This document shows positions 5,135 through 39,641 of a DNA stretch of 64,000 bases, in pieces (positions within the stretch are counted from its first letter, which is position 1; the number at the start of each line of letters is the position of its first letter). Origin of the DNA: Gemmatimonadota bacterium (GTDB lineage: Bacteria > Gemmatimonadota > Gemmatimonadetes > Longimicrobiales > Gaopeijiaceae). The notes beneath the pieces were generated by a model. It worked only from the letters and a program-made list of their open reading frames with translations, was not told the origin of the DNA and did no database searches. Position numbers and translations under genes: made by a program. The stretch is taken from the NCBI GenBank assembly GCA_039586035.1, contig JBDHLD010000014.1, positions 1-64,000 of the forward strand, given 5' to 3'.

Positions 5135-6298
5135 ATGGACGCCATCTACCTGGATCACGCAGCCACCACTCCCCTCCGACCCGAGGTCCGTGACGCCATG
5201 GACCCGTGGATGGGGCAGGCCTTCGGCAACCCCTCGAGCGCCCACCGATTCGGCCGGAGGGCAGCCACGGCGCTGGCGGAGGCTCGGGAGCGCATCGCGG
5301 CCGCGCTGGGGGCCCACCCTGGCGAAGTCTATTTCGTGCGAGGTGGCACGGAATCTGACAACATGGCGGTGCGTGGCCGGGCCGCCGTCGCGCGCGGTCG
5401 GGGCGAGCGGCCCCGCGTCGCCGCGAGCACCGTGGAGCACTCCGCGGTGCTGGAGTCCCTGGACCGCGTGGAGGCCGAGGGCGGGCTCGCCCACCGGATT
5501 CCGGTAGCTCCGACCGGCGCCCTCGACGAGGACGTCCTGGACGAGGTGTTGTCGCTCCGCCCGGATGTCCTTTCGGTCATGTGGGTGAACAACGAGGTGG
5601 GGTTGGTCCTGCCGGTCCCCGAGATCGCCGCCCGGGCCCGTCAGGCCGACGTCACCCTGCACACCGACGCCGTACAGGCCCTGGGCAAGATCCCCGTGCG
5701 GGTGGATCAGACCCCGGTGGACCTGCTCACCGTGACCGGCCACAAGATCTACGGGCCCGGCGGCGCCGGCATCCTGTTCGTCCGTGAGGGAACCGAGCTG
5801 GTACCTGGCCTGGTGGGCGGAGGACAGGAGCGCGGGTTGCGCCCGGGCACCGAGGACGTGGCCGGGGCGGTGGGGCTTGCGGAGGCCATCACCCTGGCCG
5901 TTGAAGAGCAGCCCCGGGAGTCTCTGCGCCTGGCGGCGCTTCGTGACGGCCTCGAGTCGCTCCTGCTGGAGCGCTTCGGCGATCTCACCGTCCATGGCGG
6001 CGAGGGAGCCCGCGCGCCGCACGTGGCCAACCTGGGCATCCCCGGCGTGGACGCCACGGCCCTGGTACAGGCGCTGGACATGGAAGGCGTGGCGGTCTCG
6101 AGCGGCTCCGCATGCCACAGCGGCGCCGCGAAGGCCAGCCACGTGCTGACGGCGCTGTATGGTCCCGGCGCCAGCCAGGCCTCGGTCCGCTTCAGCCTCG
6201 GTCACCTCTCCGACGACGACCGTATGCGTCGTGCGGCGGGCGTGGCTTCCGAGGTTATCGAACGGCTACGCGAGCTCGCAGGGAGCATTTCGGGGTGA
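5135..6298 (+). CDS. iscS: Cysteine desulfurase (IscS/NifS family, PLP-dependent)
   Basis: Has the class-V aminotransferase fold, the PLP lysine motif (TVTGHKIYGPGGAGILFV) and an active-site Cys loop (SSGSACHSG). It lies directly upstream of mnmA. Confidence 0.9.
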   Translation: MDAIYLDHAATTPLRPEVRDAMDPWMGQAFGNPSSAHRFGRRAATALAEARERIAAALGAHPGEVYFVRGGTESDNMAVRGRAAVARGRGERPRVAASTVEHSAVLESLDRVEAEGGLAHRIPVAPTGALDEDVLDEVLSLRPDVLSVMWVNNEVGLVLPVPEIAARARQADVTLHTDAVQALGKIPVRVDQTPVDLLTVTGHKIYGPGGAGILFVREGTELVPGLVGGGQERGLRPGTEDVAGAVGLAEAITLAVEEQPRESLRLAALRDGLESLLLERFGDLTVHGGEGARAPHVANLGIPGVDATALVQALDMEGVAVSSGSACHSGAAKASHVLTALYGPGASQASVRFSLGHLSDDDRMRRAAGVASEVIERLRELAGSISG

Positions 6299-10296: not shown

Positions 10297-11538
10297 TCAA
10301 GCGGTGCCCTCCAGCATGCGGAGAAGCAGAGCGAGGGCCGCCTGTCCCGCCCTGGCGCGCACGAAAGCACGATCCCCGGGGAATCGCTCCTTGCGAGCCA
10401 CGACGCGGCCGTCCAGGCTGACGGCGTACCAGACGGTGCCGACCGGCTTCGCATCCGTCCCTCCCTCGGGGCCGGCAACCCCCGTGATGCCGAGGCCCGC
10501 CTCGGCCCCCAGGCGGCCCGCCGCGCCCAGCGCCATCGCCTCGGCCACCGGCTGCGACACGGCTCCCTCCCGCTCGATGACACCCGCGTCCACTCCCAAC
10601 AGCGTCACCTTCGCGTCGTTCGAGTAGGACACGACACCACCCACGAAGTAGTCCGACGAACCCGCCCGGTCCGTCAGGCGCTTGGCCACGCCGCCTCCCG
10701 TGCAGCTTTCCGCCGTGGCCAACCGCTTGCCGGCTCGCCTCAACGCCTCGGCCACGGCCTCCACCAGGTCTCCGGACCGAGCTCGGTAGCGATAGGCTCC
10801 CACGATTGGCTCCAGCAGCGCTTCCGCCCGATCCAACAGTCTCGCCGCCCGGTCGGCGTCGGCGACGTCGCGCACCGTGACCCGCAGCGCGACCCCGGCG
10901 ACGCCGGGCAGGAACGCCAGCTCCGCGCGACCCAGCCCCCCGTCCTGCAAGGGAGCGAGCCGGAGGGCCAGCTCCGACTCCGGGATGCCGGTGGTATAGA
11001 CGTTTCGGTGCCGCGTGGGCCGCAAGCGACCCGCGAAGGACGCCTCCAGATAGGCCGAGGCCGACTCGGTGAAGATCCGCTTCAGCTCGGCGGGCACGCC
11101 AGGAAACAGAATCACGCACCTGCCTCCGTCCTCCAATACGAGCCCCGCCGCGGTCCCGATGGGGTTTGGGAGGACGATCGCACCCGTTGGGACCTGCACC
11201 TGCTGCACGTTCGTCTCGGGCATGCGGTCGTAGCCTCGATCCCGGAAGCGGGCCTCCAGGGCGTCCCGCAGCGACGCGTCGACTCTGAGATCACGGCTGA
11301 GGAGATCCGCCACCGCGTGCCGCGTAACGTCGTCGGGGGTGGGGCCGAGGCCGCCGGTGACGAGCACCGCATCGGCTCGCTGCAGAGCCGCCGCCACGGC
11401 TTGCTGAACGTCGGCCCCCCGATCGCCCACCGTGAACTTCGCTTCGACGGACATGCCAAGGCCGTGGAGCTCCCGGGCCAGCCATGCGCTGTTCGTGTCG
11501 ACCGTCTCACCCAGGAGCAACTCGTCTCCGACCGCCAC
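10297..11538 (-). CDS. cinA: CinA-family competence/damage-inducible protein (molybdopterin-binding domain + PncC-like NMN deamidase domain)
   Basis: N-terminus AVIVAVGDELLLGETVDTNSAWL matches the MoCF-biosynthesis-like domain, and the C-terminus has the CinA deamidase domain. There is no in-frame ATG near the true N-terminus. The nearest start is a GTG at 11538; an unusual start just upstream, overlapping the pgsA stop at 11580, is possible. The track's 593-aa ORF is read-through across pgsA in another frame. Confidence 0.75.
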   Translation of the reverse strand: MAVGDELLLGETVDTNSAWLARELHGLGMSVEAKFTVGDRGADVQQAVAAALQRADAVLVTGGLGPTPDDVTRHAVADLLSRDLRVDASLRDALEARFRDRGYDRMPETNVQQVQVPTGAIVLPNPIGTAAGLVLEDGGRCVILFPGVPAELKRIFTESASAYLEASFAGRLRPTRHRNVYTTGIPESELALRLAPLQDGGLGRAELAFLPGVAGVALRVTVRDVADADRAARLLDRAEALLEPIVGAYRYRARSGDLVEAVAEALRRAGKRLATAESCTGGGVAKRLTDRAGSSDYFVGGVVSYSNDAKVTLLGVDAGVIEREGAVSQPVAEAMALGAAGRLGAEAGLGITGVAGPEGGTDAKPVGTVWYAVSLDGRVVARKERFPGDRAFVRARAGQAALALLLRMLEGTA

Positions 11539-11579
11539 GATGACGGCGCGAGCCGTCGCGTGCTCGGTCGGGGGGGAGC

Positions 11580-12227
11580 TCAGGTGCCGCTCCGGACCAA
11601 CGATCGGTAGCTCCAGAGGTAGTCCAGCATGGAGTAGATCGTGAGGAGCACCGCAACGCTGAGGCTGACGCCGATGAATGCACCGTGGAAGCGGCTCCAA
11701 CTGGTCCAAGACGAGCTCCCGATCCAACCCGACTCCTCGGCTACCATCAGGAGGGGGTACCACAGCAGGAGCGCGCCCACGAAGAGATTCTGGATGAACG
11801 CCTTGTACTTCCCCGACTGACCCGCCGAGATGACGACGCCGCGTCGGGCGGCCCAGCTCCGGAACAGCGTGATGCCGAGCTCTCGCCCCAGGACCACGAC
11901 CAGGACCCAGAGAGGCAAGGTGCCCCACCACGGCACTCGGTTGAGTGGCTCCGCGGAGTGGGAAAGGATGTAGAACGGGATGAACGTGCACACGATGAGC
12001 AGCTTGTCGGCGATCGGGTCGAGGAGCTTGCCGACGTCCGTGATCCAGCCGTGCTTTCGAGCCAGGTACCCGTCCCACAGGTCGCTGAGGGCCGCAGCCA
12101 CGAACAGCACGAAGGCCGCCGTCCGACCCGGCACGGAGTCGGACAGGGCAAGCGCGAAGATCACCGGGCAGATGGCGATGCGCGCTACGGTGATGATGTT
12201 CGGGAGGGTCAGTCGTCGCCCGGCCAT
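11580..12227 (-). CDS. pgsA: CDP-diacylglycerol--glycerol-3-phosphate 3-phosphatidyltransferase
   Basis: CDP-alcohol phosphotransferase motif D..DG..AR.......G...D...D (LSDLWDGYLARKHGWITDVGKLLDPIADK); multi-TM; 215 aa. Confidence 0.85.
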   Translation of the reverse strand: MAGRRLTLPNIITVARIAICPVIFALALSDSVPGRTAAFVLFVAAALSDLWDGYLARKHGWITDVGKLLDPIADKLLIVCTFIPFYILSHSAEPLNRVPWWGTLPLWVLVVVLGRELGITLFRSWAARRGVVISAGQSGKYKAFIQNLFVGALLLWYPLLMVAEESGWIGSSSWTSWSRFHGAFIGVSLSVAVLLTIYSMLDYLWSYRSLVRSGT

Positions 12228-12334
12228 AGGCTCCGGTGGCGCGTTCGGGTCACGGCAACCGACTGAAGGTAGCGTGTAAGTGGCCTACGGAGAACCGCCC
12301 TTCGTGCCTCCGGGTCGGCAGAGCCGCACTCCGC

Positions 12335-12913
12335 TCAGCTGAGCGACTTCACGACCATCTTGGACACGGCCTTGAGCGTGTCGAAGACGCCGCGGCCCTC
12401 GATGGCCACGCCCTCGAAGTCCGGCACGCCTTCGGGGTTCAGCTGGGCGCGCAGCTCCTCCACCGCCATCACGTTGCCCAGATCCCGCTTGTTGTACTGG
12501 ATCGCGAACGGGATCTCCTCGAGATCGTAGCCGTAGGACTCGAGGTTCTCGTACAAGTTGTGCATGGCCTCGATGTTGGCCTCGGTGCGCTCTTGCTGAG
12601 AGTCGGCCACGAAGATGATCCCGTCCACGCCCTTCAGGATGAGCTTGCGGCTGGCATTGTAATAGACCTGACCCGGGACCGTGTAGAGGTGGAACCGGGT
12701 CTTGAAGCCGCGGATCTCTCCCAGATCGATGGGGAGGAAATCGAAGAAGAGCGTTCGCTCCGTCTCCGTCGCGAGCGAGATCATCTTGCCCTTGGTTTCC
12801 GGGTTCACGCGGGAGTAGACGTACTCGAGGTTGGTCGTCTTCCCGCCAAGACCGGTGCCGTAGTAGACGATCTTGCAGTTGATCTCACGGCTGGCGTAGT
12901 TGATCATCGACAT
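12335..12913 (-). CDS. mglA: Ras-like small GTPase MglA (gliding/polarity GTPase)
   Basis: Near-identical over its full length to the MglA pattern: [30 protein letters not shown]...[35 protein letters not shown]...IQYNKRDL...[10 protein letters not shown]. Confidence 0.9.
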
Positions 12914-12919
12914 GACCGG

Positions 12920-13417
12920 CTACGCTCCTTCCTCGAACAGGCGGTCGATCTCGTCGCCGGCCGCGGAGACCCAGTCGGGGTCGAGGGGCCGGCCCCCTTC
13001 CGATCCGGCTTCAATCAGTTCGCGCAAGGGCGCTTCGAGGCTCGAGACGATTCTGCTACCCTCCTTGCTGACCTGTCCTGACGGGCGGCGTCCGTTGAAG
13101 AGAATGGACAGGATGAGTTGATCGGCAACTGGCGCCACGAAGAGTGACGTGTGCTCGCCCTGCTGACAGAGGCCCTTGAGGTCGTCCTCTCCCACGAGCG
13201 ACGCCAGCGCTCGAGTCGCGGCCAGGTGGCTCACCGTGAGACTCGCGAACGCGGTGCGGTCGAGGTCCGGTGACCGCCCGGCTTCGAGAATGACGGCCCC
13301 GCTGCCATCCATGAGAATACCCATGCGCCCGTCCGTCTCCAGCAGGAGCTCGTCCAGGTTCGCGCGCAGGACCCCCAGGGGGTCGGTTGTCGTGTCGTGT
13401 GCTTGACCGAGCTTCAC
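12920..13417 (-). CDS. mglB: MglB, Roadblock/LC7-domain GAP of MglA
   Basis: Roadblock/LC7 fold pattern (AVILEAGRS...LASLTVSHLAA...SLFVAPVADQLILSILFN) and an acidic C-terminal tail (GDEIDRLFEEGA), as in MglB. It is immediately upstream of mglA. Confidence 0.85.
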   Translation of the reverse strand: MKLGQAHDTTTDPLGVLRANLDELLLETDGRMGILMDGSGAVILEAGRSPDLDRTAFASLTVSHLAATRALASLVGEDDLKGLCQQGEHTSLFVAPVADQLILSILFNGRRPSGQVSKEGSRIVSSLEAPLRELIEAGSEGGRPLDPDWVSAAGDEIDRLFEEGA

Positions 13418-13743
13418 GCCGTACCCTCCTCAGGGCTGTGCTCGAGCGCTCGCGCCTCCCGCTCCATGCGGTCGTGGATCACGCGGGCCCGATTGCGAAG
13501 GAGCTTGCTCTGCTCCCACGCGATGTAGTCTCGGAGGAGGGTGATGTGGCCCACCGACGGCTCCTCCCGGGCGATGTGCCCGAGAGCGGCCAACCTGCGA
13601 AAGGCGTGGGGACTGAACAGGTCCCGTTGGTGACGTGAGATCTGGTCACGCACCACGAGGAGCGCCACCGCACCTGCGGCGGCCGTTGCCAGCGCGGCCA
13701 CGGCCGCGATCCGGAGCGTCTTGTTCATTCTGCGTCCCGTCAC
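13414..13743 (-). CDS. Small hypothetical membrane-anchored protein (109 aa; one N-terminal TM helix + charged helical tail)
   Basis: ATGA/TGA overlaps on both sides: the recR stop overlaps its start, and its stop overlaps the mglB start. TM segment LRIAAVAALATAAAGAVALLVV. I recognise no family for it. Confidence 0.55.
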   Translation of the reverse strand: MTGRRMNKTLRIAAVAALATAAAGAVALLVVRDQISRHQRDLFSPHAFRRLAALGHIAREEPSVGHITLLRDYIAWEQSKLLRNRARVIHDRMEREARALEHSPEEGTA

Positions 13744-14333
13744 ATTTCGCGGCGACCCGCCAGGGCCTCCGCGATGGTAGTTCCGTCGACGTACTCGAGG
13801 TCCGATCCCACGGGGATCCCCCGGGCGAGGCGCGTCAGCCGCACACCTCGGGGCCTCAAAACGTTCTCAAGGTACACTGCGGTGGCCTCTCCTTCCACGC
13901 TCGCGTTCGTCGCGACGATCACTTCCGCGACGCCGCCCTCCGCGTTCGCCACTCTCTCGAGCAGGGCACCGATGTTCAACTCGTCGGGCCCGACTCCATC
14001 GAGTGGGGAGAGGTGGCCGCCCAACACGTGGTACAGTCCCCTGAATCCGCCCGTACGTTCGATGGCGCCTACTTCGTAGGCCTCCTCCACCACACATAGT
14101 ATCGACGGATCTCTTCGCGGATTAGAGCAGATCTCGCAGAGCTCGTCTTCGCTGAAATTCCCGCACTGGGCGCAGGGCCGCACCCGCTCTGCGAGTTCCT
14201 TCAAGGCCCGGCTCAATCGATGCACGTCTTCACGCGATCCCTTGAGCATGTGGTGGACCAGCCGCAGCGCGGTCTTGGGGCCGATGCCCGGCAAGCGGGA
14301 CAGCTCCACCGTGACGTGATCGATCGCCGACAT
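13740..14333 (-). CDS. recR: Recombination protein RecR
   Basis: HhH motif (LPGIGPKTALRL), C4 zinc finger (CAQCGNFSEDELCEIC) and a Toprim domain. Confidence 0.95.
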   Translation of the reverse strand: MSAIDHVTVELSRLPGIGPKTALRLVHHMLKGSREDVHRLSRALKELAERVRPCAQCGNFSEDELCEICSNPRRDPSILCVVEEAYEVGAIERTGGFRGLYHVLGGHLSPLDGVGPDELNIGALLERVANAEGGVAEVIVATNASVEGEATAVYLENVLRPRGVRLTRLARGIPVGSDLEYVDGTTIAEALAGRREM

Positions 14334-14372
14334 GGCTATGTCGCCTGGCCGCGGTACCGGTCCCGCCCGGCG

Positions 14373-14693
14373 TCAGAAGAGCCCAGGGATCTGGACCGGG
14401 AGCCCACCTGCCGCCTTGCGCATTTCCTCTTCGTAGAGCGTGCGCGCCTTCTTCTGCGCTTCCGCCACGGCGGCGAGGACGAGATCCTCGAGCATTTCCA
14501 CGTCCGCCGGATCCACGACCGTGGGCTCGATCGAGATCTTCTTGACGGCCCCCTTTCCGTCGACGGCGACCGTCACCATGCCGCCTCCTGACGTGGCCGT
14601 GACCTCTTGGCTGTCCAGGTTGTTCTGGATCTCCGCGATGCGGGCCTGAAGCTGCTGGCCCATTTGCATCAGCTGCTGAAGGTTCTCGTTCAT
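14373..14693 (-). CDS. ybaB: Nucleoid-associated protein YbaB/EbfC
   Basis: 106 aa; MNENLQQLMQMGQQLQARIAEIQNNL...GGGMVTVAVDGKGAVKKISI. It sits in the conserved position between dnaX and recR. Confidence 0.9.
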   Translation of the reverse strand: MNENLQQLMQMGQQLQARIAEIQNNLDSQEVTATSGGGMVTVAVDGKGAVKKISIEPTVVDPADVEMLEDLVLAAVAEAQKKARTLYEEEMRKAAGGLPVQIPGLF

Positions 14694-14743
14694 CGATCGG
14701 CTCGAATCCTAGAAGTCCTTTTCCGACAACGACCTCGAACCGC

Positions 14744-16528
14744 TCAGTCGAGCAGCTCGAGGTCCAGCTCTTGTACCGCCTTGCCCAGCAGTGGTTCCCG
14801 TTCGATCAGCTCCCTCAAGCGGCCCTCGCGAACGGTCTCGGGCGTGATCCGTCGACTCGCGTCCGCGGCCGCTTCGGTAGCGACGACGACCAGCTGCGGC
14901 CTGTCCACCAGATGTCGATGTAGCGCCCTTTCGACTGCGGCGCGCACGAGGGGTTCCCGCAGCCTGTCCAGCCCTGGGCCCGGCGGGAGGCTCACCTCCA
15001 CCTGGCCCTCGCTGCCGCTCCGGACTACCGCAGCTCGCATGAACGGGACCAACCCCCCCGGCAGCCCTGCGCCCTGGTCCAGGAGGCGAGTCCAGGCGAC
15101 CGCCGGATCGCCGGTCGGTGATCGGGGCTCGGCGGTCTCCGGCTGCTGGAGCCCCGAGGCGCTGCCCTCTCCGTCGTGTTCCGAGACGCCTTCTTCCGAG
15201 GTCTCCGCCGCCGCCGACAGATTGGACGCCAGCGAGTCCTCGTTCCCTCCCGCCATCGACGGTTGGCTCTCGGGGTCGGTGGGGGCCGGCGGCGAGAGCG
15301 CCGCCTCCGGCGGCACCGACGCGGTTGAGCCGGCCGACGTCGCGAAGCTACCGCCTGGCGACTCGACGTCCGCAGGGGCACCGCCCAATCCTCGCAGCAG
15401 CTCCTCCAGGTCAACGGTGCGATCGAGGAATGCGAGGCGAAGCAGGAGCATCTCCACCAACATACGGGGCTGCACGCTGCGCCGGAGGCTGCCGGATGTC
15501 TCGAGCTCCGCCGCGAGCGCCAGCATGCGAACCAGATCCACGGGATCACAGCGCTCAGCCCGGTCCCGGAAGCCGTCTCGCAGGTCCTCTCGCACGTCGG
15601 ACAGCTCGGAGGAGCCCTCGAGCCGGATTCGGAGCAGCAGCCGGATGGCCTCGACCAGGCCGTGGTAGAACTCGACCAAGTCGTACCCATCGGCCACCAG
15701 CCGATCCACGAAAGCGAAGATCCGTCCCGTCTGTCGCGCCATGAGGATGTCGATCAACTCGACGTACCGCTCCTCCTCGACCAGGCCCAGGATCTGCCGG
15801 ACCGCCTCCTGGCTCACCTGCCCTCCCGTCAGGGCCATGACCTGGTCCAGGAGCGAAAGCGCGTCACGCATGCCGCCGTCGGCCTTGCGGGCGATGGTAC
15901 GGAGGGCGTCATCCGGGCCCTCTGTCCCTTCGCGCCTCAACACCTCCGACAGGCGCTCCACGATGTCGGCGACGCCGATCCGGCGGAAGTCGAACCGCTG
16001 GCAGCGCGACAGGATCGGCGCCGCGGACTGCTGAATCTTCTGGGGCTCGGTCGTGGCGAAGACGAAGATCACACGCGGGGGCGGCTCCTCGAGGACCTTG
16101 AGGAGGGCATTCCACGCCTCCCGGGTCAACATGTGGGCCTCGTCCAGGATGTAGACCTTGTACCGGCCCTCGTCGGACGGCGCGTATTGAGCCCGTGCGC
16201 GTAGCTCGCGGGCGTCGTCCACCCCCCGATTCGAGGCCGCGTCGATCTCGACCACATCCAGGGCCGTGTGGCCACCCCAGATCCGGCTGCAGCTCTCGCA
16301 CTCCCCGCACGGCTCCCCTTCCGGGGTCCGGGTCGGGCAGTTCAAAGCCATGGCCAAGACGCGGGCCAGAGTCGTCTTGCCGACACCGCGGGGGCCACAG
16401 AAGAGGTAGGCGTGGCCCACCCTGCCCCCTGCAACCGCACGCCGCAAGGTCTCCGAGACGTGACCCTGAGTGGCCACCTCCGAGAACGTTCGGGGTCGGT
16501 ATTTGCGCGCTAGCGCCGTGTGGGACAC
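14744..16528 (-). CDS. dnaX: DNA polymerase III subunit gamma/tau
   Basis: AAA+ clamp-loader motifs (ALARKYRPRTF, GPRGVGKTT), a zinc module (CGECESC) and an SRC motif. The track start (GTG at 16630) abuts the SRP-RNA terminator. An in-frame GTG at 16528 gives the canonical N-terminus (M)SHTALARKYRP. Confidence 0.88.
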   Translation of the reverse strand: MSHTALARKYRPRTFSEVATQGHVSETLRRAVAGGRVGHAYLFCGPRGVGKTTLARVLAMALNCPTRTPEGEPCGECESCSRIWGGHTALDVVEIDAASNRGVDDARELRARAQYAPSDEGRYKVYILDEAHMLTREAWNALLKVLEEPPPRVIFVFATTEPQKIQQSAAPILSRCQRFDFRRIGVADIVERLSEVLRREGTEGPDDALRTIARKADGGMRDALSLLDQVMALTGGQVSQEAVRQILGLVEEERYVELIDILMARQTGRIFAFVDRLVADGYDLVEFYHGLVEAIRLLLRIRLEGSSELSDVREDLRDGFRDRAERCDPVDLVRMLALAAELETSGSLRRSVQPRMLVEMLLLRLAFLDRTVDLEELLRGLGGAPADVESPGGSFATSAGSTASVPPEAALSPPAPTDPESQPSMAGGNEDSLASNLSAAAETSEEGVSEHDGEGSASGLQQPETAEPRSPTGDPAVAWTRLLDQGAGLPGGLVPFMRAAVVRSGSEGQVEVSLPPGPGLDRLREPLVRAAVERALHRHLVDRPQLVVVATEAAADASRRITPETVREGRLRELIEREPLLGKAVQELDLELLD

Positions 16529-16633
16529 AGGGCCGCCCGAATGGCTGGCTGACGTTGTCCCGGGCGACCGGGCCTCTGTGCCCGGAGCCCCGGCCCGAGG
16601 GCGGAGGACGGGAGTCGAAGCGGGCAGCACGGG

Positions 16634-16741
16634 AAAAAAAATGCCCCAGGCGACCCGCAGCTACGATTACCGCACTTAGCGCTGCTACCTGCGGGGTCCT
16701 GACGCGGTTCGTGGGCTCTCGCCCTACGGACCTGGGGCACC
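16634..16741 (-). ncRNA. ffs: Signal recognition particle RNA (small 4.5S-type SRP RNA, ffs) with intrinsic terminator
   Basis: Minus-strand sequence GUGCCCCAGGUCCGUAGGGCGAGAGCCCACGAACCGCGUCAGGACCCCGCAGGUAGCAGCGCUAAGUGCGGUAAUCGUAGCUGCGGGUCGCCUGGGGCA followed by U8. The 5' and 3' ends pair (GCCCCAGG / CCUGGGGC). The conserved domain-IV core GUCAGG...AGGNAGCAGC and the 3' GUAGCUG... resemble E. coli 4.5S RNA. Location directly upstream of dnaX is classic. Confidence 0.75.
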
Positions 16742-16799
16742 GCGAAAGCTACCCATGCGGAGAGAGAGCGTCAACCGAATCGCGGCGGACGCCGAGCCT

Positions 16800-17198
16800 T
16801 CAACGGTGTCGTCGCCAGGCGTCCTCGACGTGCTCGATGCGCGTGGGTCCTGCGGGCCCGAAGAACACCGCCACCGCGTCGAATCGGTAGGTCCGTCCCA
16901 CCCCCGGATGGGCCTCCGTCCACCGCCGGGCTACCTCCGAGATCTCGCGACGCTTCTTCCAGGTGATGGCTTCCAGCGGGTGACCGAACCCCGTATCCCT
17001 TCGACTCTTGACCTCGACGAACGCCACGAGCGTACCCCGCCGCGCGATGAGGTCCACCTCTTTTCGACCCGCTCGGTAGTTCCGTTCGAGGATCGTCCAG
17101 CCCATCCGCTCGAAGAGCGCCGCCGCGAGACGCTCGCCCTCCCGGCCGAGCTCGAGCGACGTACCCCTGAATGAGCCGGTCGTGGGCTGTTCGTTCAT
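16800..17198 (-). CDS. yraN: YraN-family (UPF0102) predicted endonuclease
   Basis: 132 aa; GERLAAALFERMGWTILERNYR...EVDLIARRGTLVAFVEVKSRR matches the restriction-endonuclease-like fold of the YraN family. The track's 278-aa ORF is an upstream extension; an ATG at 17198 gives MNEQPTTG.... Confidence 0.8.
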   Translation of the reverse strand: MNEQPTTGSFRGTSLELGREGERLAAALFERMGWTILERNYRAGRKEVDLIARRGTLVAFVEVKSRRDTGFGHPLEAITWKKRREISEVARRWTEAHPGVGRTYRFDAVAVFFGPAGPTRIEHVEDAWRRHR

Positions 17199-17400
17199 GG
17201 TAGGAAGGTCGCAGACAGCCCCGGGCGCGACCATGAGCCGGTGGGACGGAGGCACGACGGCCGAACCGCCACCGCGCATTGGCAGCCGGCCTCGGGATCG
17301 GGACGAGTCAGGATCGCCGCGACCCGACCGGTCGGATCGGGCCTGTGGTTGCGCTCGCCGGACCGCGTCGACTCGGCCGACCCGGCTTCCCGAGCGTCGG

Positions 17401-39569: not shown

Positions 39570-39641
39570 TTGCCCCCCCAGGACTCGAACCTGGACCAAG
39601 GGTTCCAAAGACCCTTGTGCTGCCGTTACACCAGGGGGCAG
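39570..39641 (-). tRNA. tRNA-Gln (anticodon UUG)
   Basis: Minus strand UGCCCCCUGGUGUAACGGCAGCACAAGGGUCUUUGGAACCCUUGGUCCAGGUUCGAGUCCUGGGGGGCA. D-arm GUGU/GCAC with a GG loop. Anticodon stem AGGGU/ACCCU with loop CUUUGGA. T-arm CCAGG-UUCGAGU-CCUGG. My hand fold of the acceptor stem is one G short of perfect, so boundaries are +/-2 nt. Confidence 0.75.

Follow-up and report, generated by a model that had tools for sequence, protein, structure and literature searches.

We analyzed a stretch of 64,000 nucleotides (nt) from contig JBDHLD010000014.1 of a Gemmatimonadota bacterium (Gaopeijiaceae; GC content 65-73%), hereafter the window, in which a small open reading frame (ORF) lies between recR and mglB. 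The minus-strand order is signal recognition particle (SRP) RNA, dnaX, ybaB, recR, small ORF, mglB, mglA, pgsA. The small ORF is a real gene for a membrane protein, specific to the phylum Gemmatimonadota and under purifying selection. Its presence is independent, in both directions, of mglA and mglB, which encode a small GTPase, MglA, and the GTPase-activating protein (GAP) that acts on it, MglB. Because the small gene persists without mglB and mglA, and mglBA persist without the small gene, the small protein is not an obligate third Mgl component. The best overall explanation, to which we assign a probability of about 0.62, is that the locus combines the known dnaX-ybaB-recR-mglBA order with a phylum-specific gene for a membrane docking module whose essential partner is neither MglA nor MglB. 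An earlier note on this DNA had proposed a third polarity-switch component with a fixed link to genes of replication. That proposal finds no support in the comparative data and, as it stands, offers no basis for further work.

A membrane protein family specific to Gemmatimonadota

Homology searches with the small protein returned 876 homologues at E<=0.01, nearly all of them 100-110 residues long with a mode of 104, and the named homologues carry Gemmatimonadota labels. Among 1.8 billion cluster representatives, an exhaustive profile search retrieved only 157 clusters, and tblastn against one genome per GTDB species located the gene in at least 521 species, whose labels read Gemmatimonadota, Gemmatimonadales or Longimicrobiales. 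An alignment of 44 sequences contains 23 invariant columns and the core pattern RDQ..RH.RDLFS...RRLAALG...SV...LLRD...WE...LR.RA...RM. The family falls into two subfamilies, one of about 104 residues that includes the window protein and one of about 89-90 residues from soil Gemmatimonadales and Gemmatimonadaceae, and length and architecture are conserved across the two. Compared with the 93%-identical relative L007, the ratio of non-synonymous to synonymous substitution rates (dN/dS) of the gene is 0.077, with 26.5 synonymous versus 7.5 non-synonymous differences. Searches of Pfam, NCBIfam and PDB sequences, performed with the single protein and with the 44-member alignment, gave no meaningful match, in agreement with the earlier description of the protein as unannotated. 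With these data, the boundaries, modelled fold and phyletic distribution of a phylum-specific family of small membrane proteins are now defined.

The 109-residue reading frame of the earlier note thus corresponds to a real, conserved gene, while its length needs correction. A start at ATG 13728, giving 104 residues, appears likelier than one at GTG 13743, giving 109, because 104 is the modal length of the homologues and their alignments open at MNK or MNR. ATG 13728 sits 11 nt past the recR stop, and the same 11-nt gap is found in L007. The recR stop overlaps the alternative GTG 13743 as GTGA.

Some database labels in this family stand apart from the rest. The metagenome-assembled genomes L018, L063, L069 and L070, labelled 'Gammaproteobacteria bacterium', bear a Gemmatimonadota-type locus, and one family member (P0326) is labelled Pseudonocardiaceae; all are probably mis-binned or mislabelled.

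Predicted fold and topology of the small protein

The AlphaFold2 (AF2) model of the small protein (predicted local distance difference test score, pLDDT, 82.6) consists of a long N-terminal helix that contains the transmembrane (TM) segment, followed by helices at residues 42-53, 59-71 and 75-97. The TM segment has a mean Kyte-Doolittle value of 2.17 over 19 residues, and the C-terminal domain is basic, with a mean isoelectric point (pI) of ~11 and a net charge of +5. The N-terminal TM helix and charged helical tail described earlier are therefore borne out. Lysine and arginine are richer on the C-flank than on the N-flank of the TM segment in 46 of 60 members. Because of this excess, the positive-inside rule probably places the protein in an N-out/C-in orientation, with a very short N-terminus outside and the basic three-helix domain in the cytoplasm. 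A cleavable signal peptide was considered and rejected by eye, as the hydrophobic stretch of ~20 residues continues into VRDQ..R.RRDLF as one predicted helix.

In the model, the C-terminal three-helix domain appears to be HEAT-like. A Foldseek comparison of the model with the PDB gave no match with E<0.1, and the matches above this value are generic alpha-solenoids. Furthermore, no Pfam HEAT family was among the matches at E<=10 for 44 members of the family. Set beside short HEAT-like proteins of the PBS-lyase type, namely TON_1937 (4l7m), Escherichia coli YibA (1oyz) and the artificial alphaRep (4jw2), the small protein would span about 1.5 repeats, and it differs from them in its fused TM helix and in the lack of a Pfam HEAT match. 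The fold comparison detected no DNA-binding fold. The alpha-beta-alpha fold of Roadblock proteins is also absent from the all-helical AF2 model, and no Robl_LC7 match was obtained; the earlier note was right that the protein is not MglC.

MglA and MglB form an orthodox pair

Residues 1-191 of the window MglA align to Myxococcus xanthus MglA (6hjh/6h17) with the score given in Table 1 and an identity of ~72% by hand count on the alignment, and the match to Thermus thermophilus MglA reaches 268 bits. The segments GKTT, RTLFFDF, TVPGQ and YNKRD match the M. xanthus residues. All group 1 motifs are present, i.e., the P-loop GxxxxGKT, the switch-I RT, which holds the intrinsic arginine, TVPGQ instead of DxxGQ, and NKxD. 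The roles of these residues come from published work on MglA. An MglA is classed as 'coupled' when mglB lies within four genes (PMC4316618), and here mglB ends 6 nt upstream of mglA.

Residues 18-165 of MglB align to residues 16-161 of M. xanthus MglB (6izw_B) with E=2e-14, and the C-terminal helix is present (DEIDRLFEEGA versus DDIDNLFSEGS in M. xanthus). Against the NCBIfam MglB equivalog model NF052242, the protein scores 63.2 bits over model positions 17-160 of 161 and does not reach the cutoff of 200. Because the match spans the whole model, the low score is to be read as divergence, not truncation. MglB evolves fast in this clade, with 29-40% identity between Gemmatimonadota lineages. 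Compared with L007, dN/dS is 0.023 for mglA and 0.070 for mglB, indicating purifying selection on both genes. As judged from these alignments, MglA and MglB are genuine and orthodox, and they should act as the usual GTPase/GAP pair.

Two variants of MglA were observed among the relatives. In a Longimicrobiales-type clade (L009, L012, L014, L042, L047, L049, L055, L063, L065, L069, L070 and L083), MglA is divergent, with 61-66% identity to the window protein compared with 82-92% in other lineages; in these loci mglB is absent and mglA starts 3-4 nt past the stop of the small gene. The second variant, from soil Gemmatimonadales (L088-L091, e.g., L089 5783-6457; L124 3501-4175), has 224-225 residues versus 192, and its extra ~32 residues (e.g., WPVSEPARQRTTPDPYHDGEQLVFEQDGQWVERALW) lie after the 'LNPG' segment and before the final G5/helix region.

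The small gene and mglBA occur independently of each other

To compare the locus across relatives, we used two collections. Set 1 comprises 81 non-redundant loci retrieved with the small protein as query, in most cases a single locus for each GTDB species, and set 2 comprises 80 metagenome loci found with MglA. At all set 1 junctions with a clean, computable stop-to-start distance, recR lies directly upstream of the small gene (-4 to +60 nt); the exception is L005, in which recR is frameshifted. The genes downstream of the small gene vary. Ten loci continue with mglB and mglA and 55 with mglA alone, mglB being missing next to an intact small gene in most marine and saline lineages. In nine further loci (L045, L051, L052, L054, L056, L058, L060, L061 and L073), the small gene leads straight to pgsA, with neither mglB nor mglA. 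Decayed fragments of mglA were found in L038, L081 and probably L068. In every locus in which mglA is absent or decayed, the small protein still has all of its core motifs.

The 89-residue subfamily shows the compact arrangement. Four soil Gemmatimonadales loci (L088-L091) carry dnaX-ybaB-recR-small-mglB-mglA-pgsA-cinA in tight packing, and in a fifth, short contig recR overlaps the small gene. Among the pgsA-type loci of set 2 with recR in view, 27 have the order small-mglB-mglA and seven have small-mglA. Another 14 Gemmatimonadota-type loci of this set read recR-mglB-mglA-pgsA, and the hidden Markov model (HMM) of the family finds no small gene in them at E<=10. These 14 loci form one monophyletic clade nested among soil Gemmatimonadales; in L124, for example, mglB starts 13 nt past recR. 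The small gene is also missing from four loci of Myxococcus type. In L164 and L165, recR is followed directly by mglB-mglA, and in L142 and L161 a recR fragment precedes mglB-mglA; all four lack pgsA as well. L165 also has dnaX and ybaB upstream, and it is classed as a Myxococcus-type organism because of a 377-bit match of its MglA to that of M. xanthus. Several further mglBA loci have no recR in the upstream sequence examined, which covers the full 3.5 kb in eight of them. The earlier note had asked whether the small ORF is always found with mglB, and the answer is negative in both directions.

Neighbor-joining (NJ) trees were used to place these states. The small-mglB-mglA state is found on basal branches and in the soil group, and for this reason the six-gene order dnaX-ybaB-recR-small-mglB-mglA looks ancestral in Gemmatimonadota. 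On these trees, mglA was lost completely in at least four separate lineages and mglB in more than one; the window and L007 keep mglB though they are nested among lineages without it. A mirror-tree analysis gave no specific signal linking the small protein to MglA (partial correlation 0.03) or to RecR (0.07). The values for PgsA (0.54) and YbaB (0.38) probably reflect a better tracking of overall divergence by these proteins and are not evidence of interaction. Across the loci, recR is the only constant neighbor of the small gene.

Departures in and around recR were seen in three loci. In L005, on a 1.36-Mb contig, recR is split at 5406-6004 into two ORFs of 118 and 81 residues; the cause would be a frameshift, decay to a pseudogene or an error in the assembly. 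Separation of recR from the small gene occurs only in two soil loci, by ~850 nt in L115 (1835-2688) and ~290 nt in L104 (2392-2683).

Junctions, transcription signals and a putative remnant of mglB

In the window, the stop of the small ORF overlaps the mglB start, GTG 13417, by 4 nt as GTGA, and a GGAG Shine-Dalgarno sequence for mglA lies within the 3' end of mglB. The 6-nt mglB-mglA gap of the earlier note was found as claimed, while the overlaps proved to be GTGA and not ATGA. A consensus scan of positions 11400-17200 returned no sigma-70-like promoter. A terminator scan of the same interval gave four terminator-like matches, versus ~2 expected from shuffles, none of them at a gene boundary from recR to mglA. 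For a 110-nt stretch covering the mglA stop and the 107 nt before pgsA, predicted folding was no stronger than in shuffled controls (z=0.97). Because of the GTGA overlap, the 6- and 11-nt gaps, and the lack of a promoter or convincing terminator between recR and mglA in these scans, the simplest reading is that recR, the small gene, mglB and mglA are probably co-transcribed and translationally coupled in the window genome.

Relatives without mglB are organized differently. Here, the gap between the small gene and mglA mostly measures 100-280 nt, and a bipartite, highly conserved motif of fixed spacing, TTGCC-N17-CGA[GC]TTTA[TG]G, is concentrated in it. More specifically, 29 of the 36 occurrences in 630 kb of loci fall within this gap (e.g., L001 6349, L005 6356, L013 4310 and L019 4347). 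Three more lie inside mglB at the corresponding position (L018 1961, L035 4478 and L062 4514), where the motif is in frame and encodes LATLVGGVEF. The remaining sites are on the opposite strand downstream of mglA in L035, upstream of dnaX in L054 and L058, and in L033, whose contig ends inside mglA. A search of the window for the motif gave no match. The spacing of the motif differs from that of the sigma-70 consensus.

The 3' ends of the gaps retain GGAGCGTAG or GGAGGTAGCGTCGACC, which correspond to the mglB stop and the mglA Shine-Dalgarno sequence as in the window. When the L028 gap was aligned with the mglB genes of sister lineages, the nucleotide alignment was noisy, and only the GAGTTTAGGG motif segment and the 3' end aligned convincingly. 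Mainly because the motif shares its position with the sites inside mglB and the GGAGCGTAG end is retained, the data are suggestive of a gap that is a decayed mglB, keeping a promoter-like element and the ribosome-binding site of mglA. The motif itself resembles a promoter of mglA that was kept after mglB was lost. If so, the repeated loss of mglB would be a case of a coding sequence reduced to its regulatory parts.

Relation to known gene orders

The dnaX-DUF149(ybaB)-recR-(mglB)-mglA synteny is known in deltaproteobacteria, among them Bdellovibrio bacteriovorus and Bacteriovorax marinus (Milner et al. 2014, PMC3983030). Bacteriovorax has mglB-mglA downstream of recR, and Bdellovibrio lost mglB from that context (PMC3983030). 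The window shares the order and orientation of these loci, in which mglB-mglA follow recR directly. As in Bdellovibrio, some Gemmatimonadota lineages lose mglB and keep mglA with its flanking genes. Unlike the deltaproteobacteria, Gemmatimonadota have a 104-residue membrane protein gene between recR and mglB, pgsA-cinA after mglA, and overlapping or nearly overlapping junctions. Group 1 MglA had been listed in Gemmatimonadetes, with group 1 neighborhoods varying widely (Wuichet & Sogaard-Andersen 2014, PMC4316618). The starting point of the earlier note, that mglB-mglA normally form a free-standing locus, is contradicted by the published recR-mglBA synteny (PMC3983030, PMC3546991) and by the Myxococcus-type loci L164 and L165. 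The recR-mglBA link is a known pattern that is here extended to Gemmatimonadota, and it is among the more persistent neighborhoods of functionally unrelated genes.

In M. xanthus, the masABK operon alone separates the recR operon from mglBA, from which it is divergent; its three products are membrane-associated and have a genetic link to mgl (Fremgen et al. 2013, PMC3546991). M. xanthus and Gemmatimonadota both have lineage-specific genes between recR and mglB, and in both cases these genes encode membrane-associated proteins. The masABK products are three large proteins, of which MasK is a kinase, whereas Gemmatimonadota have one small, co-directional gene without similarity to the Mas proteins.

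Bacillus subtilis offers a parallel on the recR side, with the order scr (SRP RNA)-dnaX-ybaB homologue-recR followed by the small lineage-specific genes yaaL and bofA. BofA is a small integral membrane protein, and yaaL and bofA are not known to have functions related to RecR. The small protein of Gemmatimonadota is unrelated to YaaL or BofA in sequence and fold, and Bacillus has no mgl genes. Because recR precedes yaaL and bofA in B. subtilis (PMC10454642), small lineage-specific genes trailing recR are not unusual.

Proposed role of the small protein

We read the locus as the form that an old, previously described gene order takes in Gemmatimonadota, in which the housekeeping block (SRP RNA)-dnaX-ybaB-recR is followed by the mglB-mglA switch. 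Between recR and mglB lies the inserted gene for a 104-residue single-pass protein, its domain probably facing the cytoplasm. Through the tight or overlapping junctions, the protein would be made together with RecR and may serve as a docking module at the inner face of the membrane, with an essential partner other than MglA or MglB. The compact recR-small-mglB-mglA arrangement would be ancestral, and most relatives would have reduced mglB to a 100-280-nt remnant. With the promoter-like motif and the mglA ribosome-binding site kept in this remnant, the small gene would close the recR unit and mglA would gain a start of its own.

Several points weigh against this proposal. The docking role is a guess from the fold alone, and the fold matches generic alpha-solenoids. 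The N-out/C-in topology is moderately supported by the C-flank excess in 46 of 60 sequences, and operon structure in the phylum is inferred from spacing. The NJ trees are rough, so that the counts of independent losses are estimates, and the loci without mglA were viewed as 8-kb windows, so that mglA could sit elsewhere in those genomes. Furthermore, mglA is next or next but one to the small gene in ~85% of the small-gene loci, with only 3-4 nt from stop to start in one clade, and the M. xanthus slot between recR and mglBA holds the Mgl-interacting, membrane-associated masABK, a suggestive parallel (PMC3546991).

Alternative explanations

An unlikely alternative, and the one that fares best, is that the small protein serves RecR, YbaB or DnaX, for example by tethering RecFOR or the nucleoid to the membrane via its basic domain. 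At every measurable junction, recR is directly upstream; many of these junctions are 4-nt overlaps or gaps of 1-11 nt, and the adjacency extends to the distant 89-residue subfamily. Where relatives lack mglB, the recR transcription unit seems to end with the small gene, and the pI and net charge of the C-terminal domain are compatible with binding of DNA or an acidic protein. However, the tie to RecR is one of adjacency alone, and the B. subtilis recR-yaaL-bofA order makes a position after recR weak evidence. The small gene is missing next to recR in one Gemmatimonadales clade, its product shows a partial distance correlation of ~0.07 with RecR, and the fold comparison detected no DNA-binding fold.

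The proposal of the earlier note, in which the small TM protein is a third MglAB component acting as anchor, effector or regulator and co-encoded for matched amounts, retains only a slim chance. It draws on the 4-nt overlap of the small-gene stop with the mglB start, which is seen in the window and in several lineages, on mglA following the small gene in ~85% of loci (within 3-4 nt in one clade), and on masABK, the MglA-linked membrane-associated proteins in the same slot of M. xanthus. The distribution of the genes argues otherwise, since the small gene is kept without mglB in 55 loci and without both mgl genes in nine. The latter nine species, whose small gene is intact, imply at least four independent losses. 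Conversely, the clade of 14 loci keeps mglB-mglA without the small gene, as do the Myxococcota-type loci of the same synteny. In addition, the small protein shows no co-evolution with MglA (partial r=0.03), and a promoter-like element stands between the small gene and mglA in most relatives.

A looser version of the Mgl link has a slimmer chance still. Here, the slot between recR and mglB would be a recurrent home for lineage-specific, membrane-bound Mgl accessories, such as masABK in M. xanthus and a small protein recruiting or regulating MglA in Gemmatimonadota, which would be dispensable in some lineages and have a second role where mglA was lost. Such a link would be compatible with the tight junctions, with the closeness of mglA in ~85% of the small-gene loci and with the example of masABK. 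If true, the small protein would be a new kind of partner of a prokaryotic small GTPase, and its helical-repeat fold would recall the HEAT/ARM effectors of the eukaryotic GTPases Ran and Arf.

We consider it improbable that the dnaX-ybaB-recR-mglBA order is kept across phyla by a functional coupling of polarity or motility to replication and repair on one transcript, as the earlier note had suggested. The same order does occur in phyla as distant as those of Bdellovibrio, Bacteriovorax and other deltaproteobacteria, of the Myxococcus-type contigs and of Gemmatimonadota. However, none of these data show the coupling itself. In M. xanthus, mglBA form a separate operon, and masABK, on the opposite strand, intervenes before the recR operon (PMC3546991), and in most Gemmatimonadota relatives the conserved promoter-like motif lies just upstream of mglA, separating it from the small gene. 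Moreover, mglA and mglB were lost repeatedly with the housekeeping block undisturbed, several mglBA loci lack recR upstream (over the full 3.5 kb in eight), and group 1 MglA neighborhoods reportedly vary widely (PMC4316618).

Finally, long spurious ORFs are common in high-GC DNA and dozens are listed in the region, yet the idea that the small ORF is a chance open frame of a 68% GC genome, with a non-coding spacer between recR and mglB, is already refuted by the hundreds of homologues, the 23 invariant columns, the dN/dS of 0.077, the length and architecture conserved across two subfamilies and the confident AF2 model, and has practically no probability left.

Layout of the locus and neighboring genes

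The ORFs and Pfam matches confirmed the gene identities and the order that the earlier note had given from dnaX to mglA, as well as its coordinates, with all six genes on the minus strand (Table 1). Spacings in the upstream part of the run are 50 nt between dnaX and ybaB and 39 nt between ybaB and recR, and mglA is followed by pgsA after 107 nt. In nearly all Gemmatimonadota loci with sequence reaching that far, pgsA comes next after mglA. Beyond mglA, the co-directional run continues as pgsA-cinA-...-grpE-dnaJ in the window, and relatives show cinA, a hydrolase, grpE and dnaJ.

Table 1. Features of the locus and the single tRNA gene, in window coordinates.
Feature	Coordinates	Strand	Evidence
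SRP RNA (ffs, bacterial small SRP)	16640..16738	-	Rfam RF00169, 39.1 bits, E=4.9e-7, model 1-97 complete
dnaX (DNA polymerase III tau/gamma)	16630..14744 (longest ORF)	-	Pfam DNA_pol3_delta2 (2e-36), DNA_pol3_gamma3, DNAX_ATPase_lid
ybaB/ebfC (nucleoid-associated protein, former DUF149)	14693..14373	-	Pfam YbaB_DNA_bd, 7.3e-31
recR	14333..13740	-	Pfam RecR_HhH, RecR_ZnF, Toprim_4, RecR_C
Small membrane-protein gene	13728..13414 (104 residues; likelier start); alternative GTG 13743 (109 residues)	-	Homologues; no Pfam family
mglB (Roadblock/LC7 GAP of MglA)	13417..12920	-	Pfam Robl_LC7 PF03259, 25.1 bits (cutoff 23)
mglA (group 1 MglA-type small GTPase)	12913..12335	-	296.8 bits, E=7e-88 to M. 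xanthus MglA
pgsA-like CDP-alcohol phosphatidyltransferase	12227..11580	-	Pfam CDP-OH_P_transf, 8.7e-36
Single tRNA gene	39570-39640	-	Rfam, 60.6 bits

The longest dnaX ORF opens at GTG 16630, the first base past a run of eight T (16638..16631) that follows ffs. Because alignments of homologues begin at about residue 35 and the longest ORF abuts this T-run, the true start of dnaX is probably GTG 16528 (VSHTALARKYRP...). With a promoter-like TTGACG-17nt-TAGCTT ahead of it, the ffs gene itself is the immediate upstream neighbor of dnaX. Its score of 39.1 falls just short of the RF00169 gathering score of 40, and a default Rfam scan therefore passed it over. The tRNA gene is the only RNA-family match at the gathering threshold across the window.

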